Shown: in pieces, positions 3,408 to 10,597 of the stretch
Numbering within the stretch: the stretch's first letter is position 1
How the letters are laid out: every line of letters starts with the position of its first letter
NCBI GenBank assembly: GCA_026023565.1
Contig: JAPETS010000024.1
Coordinates: forward strand, 124,001-188,000
Direction: 5' to 3'
DNA length: 64,000 nt
From: Cirrosporium novae-zelandiae
Taxonomy: Eukaryota
The notes under the pieces: model-generated
Database searches by the model: none
Seen by the model: only the letters and a program-made list of their open reading frames with translations
What the model was told of the DNA's origin: nothing
Position numbers and translations under genes: made by a program

Positions 3408-5386
3408 CTAGTAAACCTTCTCCAATGTTGTTCTGAGAATTTTTGGGTTTACGCTGACAGCCTTACTGTCCATTCCGAGCGCAAAAACGAATTCGTCTAG
3501 CGATGCACCACCATACATTATACTATCCACGGTTGTCCACGTGATACATCTGTGGCTGAATGGTCCACTGTCTCCAGTAGTGGCGGATGTATCAATGACA
3601 GCTCGGAAAGCAACTTCGTTGGAAGTCCTTAGATTTGTTGGATACATCCTGATACTGATTGTATCAGAGGAGCTAGCAAAGGCGACTGTAGCGACTGGGA
3701 ACATATCTGTGCCATTGCTTATCCATTTGACCATGCCCAGTCCTGGTTTGATAGGATCTGTAGCAAGAATAATGGATGAATTGAGATTTGGGCTCCTTGA
3801 TGTATATGTGCCTCCAAATGCAATATCCGCTTCGGTTTTCGCTATGTCCTCGAATGATGGGAGAAACGTGTTCGCAATCATGTCTGCAAGGACTCTCACA
3901 TTACTGTTTGAATTGCCTGATGAGCTTGCAGCCATGATAACGAAGCCGGCATCATAGTCAGGGGCTAGTACGAGGATGCAGCTGTATGCGCCGATATCAC
4001 CGCTCTTCGTATAGAGATCTGTTACACGCTCTGTCGGTTGTTGGATGATACGGCGAATCTCCCAAGGAGCTCCTACGCTCACCATGATCGATGCGGCGTG
4101 ACTGTGAGGCTTAAGCCAACGGCGAGTTTGGGCATCTGATAAGAAAGATGAATTAAGGATTGAGCGACCGATCGCAGATAAGTCATTAGTAGAAGAGGAC
4201 ATGCCCCCTGTTCTAATATGGCCTCACTATTAGCGTTGATCCTTCTAAACAAGGAATTGGATAATGTGCATCCGAAAAGAAATACTTACGGGCTTTCATC
4301 TCCCAAGTTGGCATTCCAATAGCTTGTCGTCATGTCGATGGGTATTATACCCATGGAGCTATTACTGGGAGTGGAGTAGCTCGACCGTTTCAATTTCAAT
4401 GGCTTGAAAAGATCTGCTTCCAACATTGATTGGAAACTATCTCCGGTAATATTTTCCAGAGCATACCCAAGGATCTGGAACGCAACATTCGAATATATGG
4501 GCGTTGTGAATGGTGCAAGTACAGCGTCACGTTGAACGAAGCCTCTGAAAAAATCTAAAAGAAATCAGAATTATCAGCAAAAATCCATGGTTTAATTTGG
4601 CACTTTTAATAACTCGGGGTTAGGAGAAAGCTGCATACGTACCCTCTCTGGAACATGGGGTTGACTGATTGAGCAAACAAGAAGGAAATGTAGTTGGATC
4701 CAATGGTGGCAGTCCATCTTGAACTAAGGCAGTGCTTGTTCCAGCGAGATCTCCGGCTGCATCTACAATGGCACTTATGGTTAGAAGAGTCCTTCCGCTC
4801 ATTTGAATAAACGTCAAGGGTACTCACAATCACGTCCGATATCAGCCAGCTGGCTCGCAAGAGCACCGATTGTGACATCGTTCCAATCCACCCGTAGTAT
4901 ACTTTGTTGCTGTCTAGTGTTACTTCTTTCTTGAGCTGCCGCCGCCGCCAGTTCCGGAACGAACTTTGTAACAGGCTCGTTCCAATGAACATCTCCGTCT
5001 TCGATCAGGAAGAGATACACCGTGAGCAACTTTGAAAGGCTGCCCATACGATAAACGGTGTCACCATCCACCGCCGAAACGCCGCTGCTTGAGTTTGTGG
5101 TCGGCGAGGTATGGTGCACTTCGAATATAGGCTCATCTTCGTGGACAGAGAATAGCGAAACGGAGAACGAGGTGTTGGCATTGTCTAAGGGACCGTATGC
5201 GGGCATATTTCCATTGCGGAGAGCCTCCTGGAGGAGATTGGTGAAATTTGCAGCGACATTCTTGAAGATGGGGTTTGAGGAGAGGTTTTTGGGTGGTGGG
5301 AAGTCTGGTCCTAGCAAGGGGCAGTTTTGCAACGCATAGGACGTAACTATGAAGGATAGCGTTGAAATGATTATTCCCAAGTTCAT
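3408..5386 (-). CDS. Secreted serine beta-lactamase/transpeptidase-family hydrolase (alkaline D-peptidase-like), about 4 exons
   Basis: Hydrophobic signal peptide MNLGIIISTLSFIVTSYA, CPLLGPDFP motif, SxxK (YRMGSLSKLLT), YxN (PIYSNVAFQILGYALE), GGMSSSTNDL and YTKSGD motifs across ORFs 4814-5479, 4620-4817 and 3408-4202. Confidence 0.88.
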
Positions 5387-6189
5387 ATTGAAAAAAACCT
5401 TGGGGCACGCGATTGATTGATTGATTAACTGATGAATGAAGAGGGTTAAGTCAAAAAAAAGATAAATTGATGTGATCAAAATTTGTTTGTGTATATATCA
5501 CTGTCTCGATACTCTTAATATCCAAAGCTAATGAACTGCACGCTATAATCGAATAGAAGCGTCCTCTTATATATACATATTCACATCACTTAGTCCTCGT
5601 TATAGCTATAGAGAGAGAGTCGATGACAAACCCCGCAACCTGTCAAAAATAGCAAAAGCTCCCTTTACCGTCGTATAAAAGCCAATAAGCGTGCAGCTTG
5701 ATCTACTCGTTTATATAAACTTTTCGGCCTCGCTCCTCTAAGTGGGGAGGAGGAAGGAAGGAAGGAAGAGAAACGGACCCGAAGGCATGGATGGGCAGTA
5801 GGGTCGTGTTGCACGATTAGCAGATATACTCAACATCTAAAAAACAGGAGCAGGCATTTACGACTGGTGCCATATTTTTTCTGTTCATATTCCTTCCATT
5901 AATTAGGTGGTGGAGGAATTAATGGTGGGCTATGCCGAGATGAGATGATCGACGTTTTTTCGTATTTCTAGCCAACCACCAATCGCTATGATGGAATTTT
6001 CGGCCCCATGGATTATGTTCCCAAGGAAAATAGTTTATTTTTTTCCTTGGCATGAAGGACTGGTTTGGGAAATATCCCTACGTTTTTTTGATCGTCCTAA
6101 GTGAACGTATATATAGTACATGGCGATATCTCTTTGGCTGGCCTTTGGTTATTAGAGTTCGGGTTGATGATATTGGGCTTAAATCTGCT

Positions 6190-7020
6190 TTACTTGGTGT
6201 GTTGGGACTTCGTCTTCCTGCTTTGAATGGCCTCGCGGGACCCAGTATCTGAGCTTTTCAGCTCCATCTCCATTAATGACGATTGACCTCGATTCTTTCT
6301 CTCCCTTTTCCTAGCGGACTTTGTCAATGCCGCTGCTGCTTCTTGCTCGGATGCTTCGTTGGATTCTGGAATACTTCTTAGCGACGAGTCATTCGGATCT
6401 GACATGATATTCCAGCGGTTATAATGATTATACAACTTGCCCAAGTCCAGACTTGTGATATTGCCGATGAGCTTGATGGGCTCTATATATAAAAAGGAGT
6501 GGGGTTGATCAAGAGCTGCCACGGACATCTTGTTCATGGTCTGTAAATATGTATCAGCGGTAATAAAACCATTGGGTTTGGTATTGAACTCAGGCAGATC
6601 ACTTCCCCGAACCTGCCTATCTTTGATGGCAATATGCGCTTCTTTCATGCCCTGTGGCTTGTACCGTAGGCCTTGGTTTTTATAAGTGTATATCGGAATG
6701 CATATACAGTGATCGTTCCTTTTGGAAAGTACAATGAACCGCCGAGTTTTCCAAATTTTGTCCCTCTCAGGACCCCGAACTATGTGTTTGCCTTTTGTGC
6801 ATTTCACTTTGTTATCATAGCAAGTCTCGATAGTGTTTATTAATAAAATTTGGCCAGCGACCCAGGATTCCCTTGGTACTACACTCAGACCATGAATATC
6901 ATATCCCTCAACAATGTCGCCTTCCTTGGGCCTTGAACTCTTTTGTTTCGCGCCCTGTTTTTGGATGGGGTTTGACTCTATAGTTTGAAATCCATAGAAA
7001 CCATCTGGTTGATCTATCAT
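6190..7020 (-). CDS. Intronless hypothetical protein; resembles fungal DUF6590-type domain; motifs align with MazF/PemK fold
   Basis: 276-codon open frame from ATG 7020, with RRFIVLS..HCICIPIYTY..QG motif and a basic C-terminal tail (KSARKRERKNR). Family call is from memory of the motif only. Confidence 0.6.
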   Translation of the reverse strand: MIDQPDGFYGFQTIESNPIQKQGAKQKSSRPKEGDIVEGYDIHGLSVVPRESWVAGQILLINTIETCYDNKVKCTKGKHIVRGPERDKIWKTRRFIVLSKRNDHCICIPIYTYKNQGLRYKPQGMKEAHIAIKDRQVRGSDLPEFNTKPNGFITADTYLQTMNKMSVAALDQPHSFLYIEPIKLIGNITSLDLGKLYNHYNRWNIMSDPNDSSLRSIPESNEASEQEAAAALTKSARKRERKNRGQSSLMEMELKSSDTGSREAIQSRKTKSQHTK

Positions 7021-7728
7021 TTTAATGTTGTATGGAGATCTCAAGGGAAATAGCAGAAAAGAGCGAGTGTAATCCGAAGCAAAAATCCGGGGAACCGATA
7101 TCGAAGGATCGGAATAAGCAAATGTAGAACGATGATTGAACTGACTGCTATCTCGATTTTCAAGGCATCTTGAGATGTTATATAAGCCGATTTAAACAAT
7201 GGAAATAGCTTCTGGACAATGATATTGGATAATCTCCTTCATAGAGAGGATAATACATATGTGACGGAAATAAAACTATCCGAGTTCTGAGTCTGGTGTC
7301 TCTCCAAGTATGGACGGAACAATGCATTGTTTATGAACAAAAAATTGAGTGATCAGGAAAGACAAGTTTCATAAATTCTACATATATAAACAAATACATG
7401 TCCCGAGACACGGGTCAGCAACTACTAGACAGTTCTTGAAAATATCCAAGTAGTAAACATGCAAAAAGTTATAGGCAGTTATAAGAGCATTGTATAACCC
7501 GCCGCTAAAGCGTTAAAAGAAACATTCGCATCTAAATCAGGGATAAAATCGTGTTTGAGTGTAAACAAGATAAATAGCCATAAATAAAATTAGTGGGTAT
7601 TAGAGTAGGCTAATTTTGGGTAAGAAAATTGTATCTTATGGATGGTGTTTAATATGCTCAAGTGTATTGAAGCAGAGGATTGATGGAGTTCTCTAATCTA
7701 GACTGACTAGACCTGTATGGCGGGCTAG

Positions 7729-7754
7729 TCACGTGCTGAGGTCGAAAACCCTAG
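7729..7754 (+). promoter_or_regulatory. Ribosomal-protein promoter elements: TCACGTG (Cbf1-type E-box) and AAACCCTAG (telobox/Tbf1-type)
   Basis: TCACGTG at 7729-7735 and AAACCCTA at 7746-7753, 115-140 bp upstream of the RPS17 ATG. This pair is typical of non-Saccharomyces fungal RP promoters. Confidence 0.55.
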
Positions 7755-7868
7755 CTTTGGCCCACAAGCGAAATTTGTGTGGAATCTTGATATTGTTCAT
7801 CCCAACCTCAACTCTCTAGCTTCGACAATTTCCTCCACCAACAACAACTAACCTAAACAGCCGTCAAG

Positions 7869-8608
7869 ATGGGTCGTAAGTTATCATTCCATTGTAACTT
7901 AACTGGGTTTACATATGCTTACTGTTCGCAGGCGTTCGCACAAAGGTGAGGAGGAATTACAACAAGAAATCGAAACTGGTCTAACGGCCTCTGCAGACAG
8001 TGAAGAAATCCGCCAAGGTCATCATTGAGCGATATGTAAGTGCCTGCATTAGAACAGCGGATCCAAGGAATATATCACTGACTTGAATTGGATAGTACCC
8101 TAAGCTCACCTTGGACTTCGAGACCAACAAAAGGATTTGCGATGAAGTTGCAATTATCAGCTCCAAGCGCCTGAGGAACAAGATTGCGGGCTACACCACC
8201 CATTTGATGAAGCGTACGAACCCTTTGATATTGCTTGGCCTTATGGGATTATGACGAGGATCAAAACTGATTGCCTGACAGGTATCCAACGGGGTCCCGT
8301 GCGCGGTATTTCCTTCAAATTGCAGGAAGAAGAGCGTGAGAGGAAAGATCAATATGTTCCAGAAATTTCAGCTCTGGATTTCACCCAGAACTCAGAGAGT
8401 GGCCAGTTGGACGTGGACTCTGAGACTAAGGACATGTTGAAGAGCCTTGGGGTATGTTCTCACCCCACCCAGAGCTACTTTTCCTTCAGTCGTATTTACT
8501 GACATACTTTGATAGTTCGATTCTATTCCTGTCAACGTTGTCCCCGTCTCTCAACAACAGGTTGTAGAGCGACCAAGAAGATTCGGCGACCGCAACCCAC
8601 GAACCTAG
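7869..8608 (+). CDS. RPS17: 40S ribosomal protein S17 (eS17), 6 coding exons
   Basis: Spliced translation [89 protein letters not shown]...[10 protein letters not shown]. All five introns are GT..AG. Confidence 0.98.
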
Positions 8609-9100
8609 ATAGATGTTACGACTTGAGGGTTAGGGATAAAAATGGGTGATGGTTCACTATGATGGCTCCATGACTACGTGGATACGCAAGCGTGCAGATA
8701 GCCAAATGAAAATGGTCTTTCAACTGAAGGTGTCGCTGATCCTTATCGGTGAAGCTTGATTGCCAAATATTTGTCCCCAGACCAAATATGTATTCTACGA
8801 TGATGCTATTAAGAATTGCTAACCGTGGAAACAGTTCAGACCGGGTACATTCAATGGTACAAAGTTCGGAGACCTTTAAGACCTCTGATTGTGATAGTAT
8901 TGTAGAAATTGAGGGGTATTTTAGATAAGGTCCTGATACTTTCTATATTAGACTAATATCATGCCATAAAAATTAGCGATATTGTTACCCTGGGTATCTT
9001 ATGATAACAAATTTTCCTTACTCTTTTCCATTATGAGACCTTCTCTAAAACGCCGATTCATGTAGTCGCTTACCATTCTTCGCCGTGTCATCATGAATTT

Positions 9101-9973
9101 TCAAATGCTCGGTATAATATCACGGTCCTCGGCTTTATCCTTTATCGAAGGCATTCCGAATGGATTTTTAGGGACATAACCCTCGATGGAATGATCATTC
9201 CCTGAGGTTACCATAGGCTGATCAGGAGGTTTGAGATCAAGACGCTCTTTTACCTGAGCCATGATCATATCACGATAAAGACCCTTCTGGGGAAGATTTC
9301 CACGCTCCAGCGCCAGCTGCTGCGTCGTTTCATTTCTTAGGGTCAACTTTTGTAAGCGTTTTTGGAGTTCTGGAAGTGAGCTTGGAATCTCGTCGTCAGA
9401 ATTGGGTTCCGGTTCATCCATGAACTTGACCTCGTATCCATCATCTTCAAAGCTGTGCTCTTGCTCTATATCTTCGCCGCCTCTGAGCCATGCAGGTTCC
9501 TCACTTAGCTGGACTCGAACATAGAGGGCTCTCTTGCCACATTCTTCGGAGCACCATCGTTCTAACTGTTTTGTTGGTACCACTTTTAAGTCCCCACTCC
9601 TTCCCCTCCCAGTAATAATCCTGAACTTCCCCTTAGTATTTTCCTTGTTCGGAGGTCGCGTGCAAAAGATGTAGCCGCACTTATGATCGATGTTTCGCTC
9701 TTCGATGAGACCGTCATAATCTTGAGGAGTAAATAGATTTAAACATCGTTTTGCTGACATGATGTCTTCTGGAGAAGGATGGTAAGGATCTGTAGTTAGA
9801 GAAGATGGATGATCAAGAAGAGAAATAGTAGCCTCGAGAATTTGAGCTTCGACATCCTTGCGGTATTGAATTAGATTTGCGTAGTGAAGGGCTGTTTGAC
9901 GATTGTGATCCTCTCGAGCTTGGGCCGTGGTTTCAGAAGACTTTGAGTTTTTGAGGATCGATTTGGGAGGCAT
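9101..9973 (-). CDS. RTR1: RNA polymerase II CTD phosphatase Rtr1/RPAP2 family
   Basis: YDGLIEERNIDHKCGYIFC and WCSEECGKRALY zinc-finger motifs; single exon of 290 aa. Confidence 0.9.
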   Translation of the reverse strand: MPPKSILKNSKSSETTAQAREDHNRQTALHYANLIQYRKDVEAQILEATISLLDHPSSLTTDPYHPSPEDIMSAKRCLNLFTPQDYDGLIEERNIDHKCGYIFCTRPPNKENTKGKFRIITGRGRSGDLKVVPTKQLERWCSEECGKRALYVRVQLSEEPAWLRGGEDIEQEHSFEDDGYEVKFMDEPEPNSDDEIPSSLPELQKRLQKLTLRNETTQQLALERGNLPQKGLYRDMIMAQVKERLDLKPPDQPMVTSGNDHSIEGYVPKNPFGMPSIKDKAEDRDIIPSI

Positions 9974-10597
9974 TATGATGTCCTCTAAGGGGACGACCCT
10001 TTAGTAAATATGTTCAGAGTATATCTGTGTAGAAAGTAGAATTGTTCGTTTCCTAAATATAAAATATGCAGAAGTAGAGTACTTGCATGTGCATTTCAGC
10101 GTTGATCTCTGCTTAAATGGGTGTGGCGGTGCTGTGGTGCTGAGTGTTGGGGCACGGACCTCAAACGACAAAGTTCGCTGCAATTGCTGTCCAGTGTGTT
10201 CAGCGTCAAGCAACTTCAGATTGTCTCAAATGTCGTTTGGATCGGTTTCAACCCAATTTATTCATTCTGCTTCCCGCAGCCTTGGAAGACGTTTAATGAT
10301 CAAGGGCTGGTGAAGGATATCATCGGTTCTTCGTCCTCTAGCTACTTATCCCACTGGTATTATTATTCAAACTGTTCTGCCTGCCCCGCCTCCGCAATCA
10401 TTTACGCTGACTGACGTGTGCATGGAGTCGCAGTAACACCCTGCTTAATTGGTTCATATATTGATTCCAACCTTCGAGAAAGAGTCGGGTTAATTAGTGA
10501 TCTCGGAGGCTACAACTATCCAACTTAGTCTTCTCCGCCTCTATCGCTACCTCCGAGAAATCTATATATCCATCTAAAAAGTTCGCCCTGGCTCATC

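Follow-up and report, generated by a model that had tools for sequence, protein, structure and literature searches.

The locus and its neighbourhood

The window, a stretch of 64,000 nucleotides from Cirrosporium novae-zelandiae, carries on its minus strand a predicted gene of the family DUF6590 (Table 1), surrounded by ordinary fungal housekeeping genes, namely a Zn2Cys6 factor, a beta-lactamase-family gene, RPS17 and Rtr1. The frame of the gene is open from 7191 to 6190, with its first in-frame ATG at 7020. The initial annotation had placed an intronless ORF at 6412..6858; the reading frame is real, and its extent proved to be longer. The predicted gene model agrees with the absence of introns, as a consensus scan of 6001-7870 for donor-branch-acceptor introns returned no candidate. 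All five MazF-like motifs proposed earlier were located in the order given for them, at residues 56-61, 91-99, 104-112, 166-176 and 182-196 of the predicted ORF, within one uninterrupted minus-strand frame.

Table 1. Features at the DUF6590 locus, in coordinates of the window.
Feature	Position	Strand	Remarks
DUF6590 ORF	7020-6190	minus	Predicted; 276 aa, single open frame, ATG at 7020, stop at 6190-6192
MazF/PemK-fold domain	6406..6885	minus	Residues ~46-205; AlphaFold2 model
Lys91	6748..6750	minus	Two residues before Arg93; candidate extra phosphate ligand
Arg93	6742..6744	minus	Equivalent of MazF catalytic Arg29; posterior 0.67
Tyr111	6688..6690	minus	At the position of MazF catalytic Thr52
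Thr112 and aromatic-x-x-x-Gly117 loop	6670..6687	minus	Thr112 equivalent to MazF Thr53
Charged C-terminal tail, outside the domain	6193..6405	minus	Weak NLS-like motif at 6298-6309
RPS17 gene	7869..8608	plus	ATG at 7869; exon 8096-8215 matches PF00833, E 3.6e-20
Beta-lactamase-family (serine hydrolase) gene	3408-5400	minus	PF00144, E 1.1e-7; downstream of the ORF

The C-terminal tail had been described as basic and NLS-like. A single K-(K/R)-x-(K/R) motif occurs in it, at residues 238-241, and is not significant, because 19% of 5000 shuffled tails contain such a motif by chance and 16 of the 68 single-domain relatives carry one as well; this part of the initial description is not supported. 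The divergent arrangement with RPS17, a neighbour identified through PF00833, was recovered: the two genes stand head-to-head with their start codons 848 bp apart. The link with RPS17 looks incidental, since at the other locus found for the subgroup of the query (n = 1) the neighbours differ and synteny with RPS17 was not seen. The beta-lactamase-family gene on the other side contains introns, and the start of its product is signal-peptide-like.

The search of the flanks for a protein antitoxin revealed only ATG frames of 38, 44 and 49 codons, the adjoining genes being the beta-lactamase-family gene and RPS17, in line with the earlier statement that no antitoxin ORF is visible nearby. Scanning of 5400-7900 for a tandem-repeat RNA antitoxin yielded nothing beyond two microsatellites with 4-base units and some repeats of two copies, as expected by chance, and an Rfam search of 4000-10000 gave no match.

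DUF6590 membership and kinship with MazF/PemK

The ORF is a real, divergent member of the fungal family DUF6590 (PF20233). It scores 48.9 bits against the family profile, where the Pfam gathering cut-off is 27 (E 8.9e-13, profile positions 5-150 of 152), and the initial suggestion of a DUF6590-like protein was well placed. Word-based homologue searches recovered only the query itself or one further protein. From the 35 rows of a full HMMER scan we removed P0002 and P0004, non-homologues that owed their match to repeats, leaving 33 DUF6590-like proteins including the query, the closest relatives of which are 28-35% identical to it. A search with a canonical member gave 58 rows and contributed 55 extra proteins, so that the family set amounts to 88 proteins, 68 with a single domain and 20 with tandem domains; these were represented in the alignment by 108 domains, one of 109 with fewer than 90 residues having been left out. 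The query belongs to a divergent subgroup of 19 of the 108 domains (FastTree support 0.996) scoring 22-68 bits against the DUF6590 profile, and the three subgroup genes seen appear to be without introns, in which they differ from canonical paralogues. The named relatives are ascomycetes throughout, from genera of Leotiomycetes, Dothideomycetes and Sordariomycetes; in the Atlas one further eukaryotic cluster was found, with Basidiomycota commonest (score 0.91).

Eight DUF6590 profile matches in the same genome resolve into six loci, three of them split by intron-like sequences, and the ORF under study is the sole subgroup member found there. In one paralogue, whose frame contains a stop, the N-terminal half of the domain is missing. 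In a comparison with 33 representatives of less than 50% identity, the query agrees with the family consensus in all 10 of the columns that are conserved at 70% or more and in 18 of the 100 that are variable, which points to selection on the protein. Conservation of one subgroup gene was followed over 14 sequences (13 come from named Botrytis/Botryotinia records), with 82% invariant columns in the domain and 66% and 52% in the flanks, and as this cluster was defined at 90% identity only the contrast between domain and flanks is informative. A search of 602 bacterial genomes, drawn from two phyla, gave no DUF6590 match above the cut-off and so revealed no donor lineage for a horizontal transfer. 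A search of viral contigs with a canonical alignment gave no relative, and in PHROGs and NCBIfam the query had no match and 55 members had no common family.

The AlphaFold2 model of residues 35-205, built from 23 sequences, reached a pLDDT of 82.1 and a pTM of 0.80. In a structure search against 48,161 representative solved chains, 12 had a Z of at least 8 (11.3-8.1), and all of these were MazF, PemK, Kid, CcdB or CptN; the best chain from beyond the MazF/PemK/CcdB superfamily was a Tudor-like domain with Z 5.9. The eukaryotic PemK-fold protein postulated in the initial annotation is thus supported by its predicted structure. The alignments with MazF chains span 94-106 residues at an rmsd of 1.8-2.9 Å, and identity over the structural alignments is 9-20%; E. 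coli MazF matches the predicted model with Z 10.7 at 19% identity, and the best chain in a second look was MazF-mt3 (Z 11.9, rmsd 2.0 Å, 97 residues). Foldseek against the PDB gave only MazF-type chains among the matches listed (best E 1.4e-3). MazF is likewise matched by a canonical tandem relative that was modelled independently (E 8.8e-4), the structural neighbours of the Atlas model of the query include PemK clusters (TM 0.49-0.56), and in the viral structure library BFVD phage PemK-like proteins rank first (E 1.1e-4). At rank 41 of the same library stands a weak structural match from Pandoravirus, A0A2U7UG89 (E 0.39, TM 0.40), which may be another eukaryote-associated PemK-like protein or a chance match.

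The predicted model has the SH3-like barrel with a C-terminal helix that marks the superfamily, matched over the whole chain. The fold is held in common, over nearly the whole chain and with Z 10-12, with the MazF/PemK/Kid toxins of E. coli and B. subtilis, MazF-mt3 and S. aureus PemK. In contrast to these, the DUF6590 domain has grown to about 150-160 aa through two insertions, which the profile alignment places in a lengthened beta1-beta2 hairpin (residues ~65-90) and in a stretch of about 33 residues after beta3 (~114-147). The type III toxins ToxN, AbiQ and CptN share the superfamily and are similarly enlarged (155-168 aa), but with Z 5.4-8.1 they are clearly more distant than MazF, and the query has no adjacent tandem-repeat RNA antitoxin.

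Sequence comparison points in the same direction. The profile of the 108 domains matches a profile of 32 bacterial PemK/MazF sequences with P 5e-4 and a score of 21.1, collinearly and end to end over 105 columns; none of 100 column-shuffled controls reaches this score, their maximum being 11.8, and the reversed control gave P 0.2-0.8. Together with the structural matches, this places the resemblance to the MazF motif series, noted initially by eye, above chance. The HH-suite probability is 11-13%; with the 89 canonical domains alone the Arg register slid by one (to Arg94), and for the 19 subgroup domains taken by themselves a global alignment with the PemK profile failed (P 0.86). Applied blind to the 602 bacterial genomes, the Pfam DUF6590 profile produced 16 matches, all weak (E ≤0.05); 10 of them have stops, and five of the six that were free of stops are PemK genes. 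In one scan PF02452 matched 8 of 19 relatives below threshold (best E 8.8e-4). At the cut-off of PF02452 (23.1 bits) there was no match for the query or its genome, the best relative scoring 19.9 bits, and sequence searches of the PDB with phmmer and with a profile gave nothing relevant. Taken together, the profile match, the recovery of bacterial PemK genes and the sub-threshold PF02452 matches make common ancestry very likely, and DUF6590 is, by predicted fold and by homology, the fungal branch of the MazF/PemK superfamily, a conclusion that we hold with near certainty.

A probably rewired active site, tandem domains and fusions

The E. coli MazF sequence was taken from the annotated K-12 record, and residue equivalences come from the profile alignment and not from coordinates. 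By this alignment Arg93 corresponds to Arg29, Pro109 to Pro50, Ile110 to Cys51, Tyr111 to Thr52 and Thr112 to Thr53, with further shared positions (MazF/query) at Gly10/Gly56, Ser80/Ser175 and Gly92/Gly186. The catalytic Arg expected from the initial annotation is retained: position 93 is Arg in 104 of 108 domains and forms the most conserved non-glycine column. The next residue, Arg94, is variable (Pro in two subgroup members), and the invariant Pro that follows the Arg of MazF is not a DUF6590 feature. The family differs from MazF/PemK in having neither a conserved Arg-Pro nor a conserved Asp-Gln. The Asp-Gln noted in the fourth motif is present in the query, where Asp171-Gln172 aligns with MazF Asp76-Gln77, and as a family feature it is absent, the pair occurring in this one of the 108 domains only.

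The catalytic Thr had been assigned one position off. Because Pro109-Ile110-Tyr111-Thr112 aligns with Pro50-Cys51-Thr52-Thr53, the conserved Thr is the second one of MazF. Thr or Ser occupies position 112 in 103 of 108 domains and the equivalent of Thr53 in 26 of the 32 bacterial sequences; position 111 has it in all 32 bacterial sequences but in no more than 21 of the 108 fungal domains. The proposed conservation of an Arg/Thr pair in fungal homologues accordingly stands for Arg93 and Thr112, which occur together (as Arg and Thr/Ser) in 66 of the 68 single-domain proteins, and fails for the Thr52 site. Gly117 is present in 92 of 107 domains, and Lys at position 91 in 76 of 108. In the query subgroup Lys91 and an aromatic residue at 111 are each found in 19 of 19 members, counts that are inflated by the retrieval of these sequences with the query itself.

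One report describes Arg29 of MazF as both the general acid and the general base, with Thr52 stabilising, and has the active-site phosphate of S. aureus PemK bound by Thr48 as well as by Thr49 (PMC8887465). For MazF-mt3, another states that T49A only halves the activity and S50A removes about a fifth of it, that a Lys23/Arg24/Arg25 triple mutant is nearly dead, and that Lys23 lies, in a model, 4.7 Å from a substrate phosphate oxygen (PMC11394972); the spacing of Lys91 and Arg93 is that of Lys23 and Arg25. According to two further papers, toxicity of K. pneumoniae MazF is abolished by T51A, although compensation by neighbouring threonines is reported for some MazFs (PMC8086154), and MazF-sth is strongly reduced by T52A (PMC10893535). 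Since the second Thr and neighbouring residues matter in other MazFs, the case for activity of the fungal protein is lowered by the loss of the Thr52 site and not removed.

Long flanks, tandem domains and fusions further distinguish DUF6590 proteins from MazF/PemK, and the query is set apart by the lack of an adjacent antitoxin. Two tandem domains occur in 20 of the 88 family proteins, an arrangement compatible, by analogy, with a MazF-like homodimer that binds RNA across its interface. A test of four residues found both domains intact in 10 of the 20 tandem proteins, one in 9 and none in 1; the proteins with one degenerate domain resemble, in sequence, a putative pair of an active and an inactive unit. 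In P0009, P0039, P0041, P0045 and P0048, for example, one domain is without the Arg/Thr/aromatic/Gly signature and the other keeps it. A model of the tandem relative P0036, built from 10 sequences, contains two folded domains, and at a pTM of 0.43 their packing is uninformative. Residues 1-150 of P0039 and P0041, which are without Pfam match, look by eye like the helical N-terminal domains of fungal NLR-type proteins.

The other subgroup locus (L147) holds two tandem single-frame paralogues, the second at L147:9520-11160. The protein encoded at L147:7686-8855 and P0005, P0007, P0014 and P0017 are subgroup proteins with a C-terminal SAM domain, which in the L147 protein is recognized at the Pfam cut-off of SAM_1 (E 1.1e-4). 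Among solved structures, a SAM profile made of four related SAM-bearing proteins and two others matched yeast Vts1 best (E 2e-4); for other SAM domains E was 0.13 and 1.6, and the resemblance to Vts1 is partial. Vts1 binds RNA. Four of the SAM fusions are 48-53% identical and, judged by sequence, probably go back to one event. Between the DUF6590 domains of P0011, residues 270-400 form a retropepsin-like domain, of the retroviral aspartyl protease fold (TM 0.66-0.74), and the linkers of P0015, P0020 and P0021 look similar by eye; a protease-gated or a dimerising architecture is possible. Further fusion partners in the family include a zinc finger and coiled-coil-like parts.

Proposed activity and competing readings

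Judged from the sequence and the predicted model, the product of the ORF probably works like MazF. We lean, if only slightly, towards an endoribonuclease that needs no metal and whose active site has been rewired to consist of Lys91, Arg93, Thr112 and the glycine loop. Such an enzyme would follow MazF in the way it cuts single-stranded RNA, Arg93 serving as general acid/base for the attack of the 2'-OH on the phosphate that leads to a 2',3'-cyclic phosphate, and the role of the transition-state Thr would probably be shared among Thr112, Lys91 and backbone groups of the conserved Thr-aromatic-x-x-x-Gly loop. As there is no operon antitoxin, control must lie elsewhere, and could come from expression, from the long flanking regions and inserts, or from partners encoded in other places. 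A narrow sequence specificity might, more speculatively, make the protein a regulator or a conditional defence effector and not a constitutive poison. Against an active RNase speak the loss of the Thr52 site and the position of CcdB, which with Z 9.7 lies near the MazFs. In comparison with MazF/PemK the query is eukaryotic, falls below the PF02452 cut-off and has its Thr52 site replaced; the label of MazF toxin would not suit it, and it should instead be filed under DUF6590 and the MazF/PemK/CcdB superfamily.

The loss of the catalytic Thr site would also be accounted for by a MazF-derived protein that binds RNA without cutting it, Arg93 and Thr112 holding the phosphate backbone and the aromatic residue at 111 stacking on a base, so that RNAs are regulated or localised. 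Such a binder, which we regard as unlikely and still worth serious attention, would suit the Vts1-like SAM fusion, the steady conservation of one subgroup gene in Botrytis/Botryotinia and the toleration of six loci in one genome without adjacent antitoxins; it is harder to reconcile with an Arg93 that is nearly invariant across sequences only about 20-30% identical, and several MazFs are, in the papers cited above, active without the first Thr. Reuse of the fold for binding of proteins or small ligands, with no link to RNA, is suggested by CcdB, a gyrase poison of the same fold that stands within the top structural matches (rmsd 2.5 Å over 89 residues). CcdB is not known to be an RNase. The roughly 60 inserted residues near the substrate groove and the zinc finger, coiled-coil-like and retropepsin-like fusions would agree with a CcdB-like path, which we nevertheless judge quite improbable: DUF6590, unlike CcdB, conserves the Arg of the RNase site, its two best-conserved polar residues sit on the MazF phosphate site, and the bacterial matches of the family profile are PemK genes.

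That the ORF is a decaying, non-functional retrocopy within an otherwise real family might be read from its single open frame, where three paralogues have intron-like splits, from its lack of a close relative (best identity 28-35%) and from the broken paralogue in the same genome. The 276-codon frame is intact, however, the conserved columns are all kept while the variable ones drift, two further subgroup genes are likewise single open frames, and no RIP-like dinucleotide skew is seen, so that we consider decay very improbable. Still less can be said for a convergent SH3-like barrel of ancestry separate from MazF. The low identity of the structural alignments, the modest HH-suite probability and a Foldseek E against the PDB that never falls below 1e-3 for the query model would be expected of convergence, but the whole MazF chain is aligned, a wide gap separates it from other SH3/Tudor barrels, and the family profile recovers PemK genes blind. 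Convergence is by these results largely refuted already, and we hold it to be extremely improbable.

The biological role of DUF6590 proteins is the least certain point. Copy number, the variety of tandem and fused forms and the broken paralogue fit a role as conflict or defence effector; a regulatory role would also agree with the steady conservation seen in Botrytis. A fuller picture, tentative and on the whole unlikely, would have the DUF6590 proteins of filamentous fungi as a large set of active eukaryotic MazF-type endoribonucleases with a rewired site of Lys, Arg and the second Thr, serving as conditional effectors of defence or cell death through antiviral RNA cleavage or a non-self response, with MazE replaced by control in cis through tandem domains (often with one degenerate, in 9 of 20), RNA-reading SAM fusions and retropepsin-like inserts.

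In the open-access literature we found no paper on DUF6590 or on a eukaryotic MazF family, and the fold link may be recorded in subscription papers, supplements or current InterPro/Pfam clan notes. PF20233 appeared there only in an unrelated pharmaceutics paper, and nothing was found on MazF together with fungal genomes and heterokaryon incompatibility, or on PemK together with Ascomycota and AlphaFold. Broader searches, judged by the titles and opening lines of abstracts among the papers listed, likewise turned up no fungal homologue. Word searches for MazF and PemK gave nothing in a comparative-genomics survey of toxins and eukaryotic conflict systems (PMC3417536), nor in the available part of a second such survey (PMC3482391). 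MazF-type RNases are treated as prokaryotic, and a multi-copy fungal branch with a conserved catalytic Arg would mean that eukaryotes have a further class of candidate endoribonucleases, a new one, would give an unstudied Pfam family a testable function and could provide a missing RNA-cutting effector for fungal immunity or RNA turnover. Its changed active site would test how far MazF chemistry depends on Arg alone, and divergent members might bring new cleavage specificities to RNA analysis. The fold link itself is easily reproduced.

Among the paralogues, three DUF6590 loci (L001, L007 and L002) lie clustered within about 12 kb on another contig (G000:C41:304363-315857). The broken paralogue L003 (G000:C41:1449835-1453101) is 78% identical in DNA to L001 over 294 bases and lies immediately downstream of a frame that weakly resembles a peptidase (PF00863, E 0.17).
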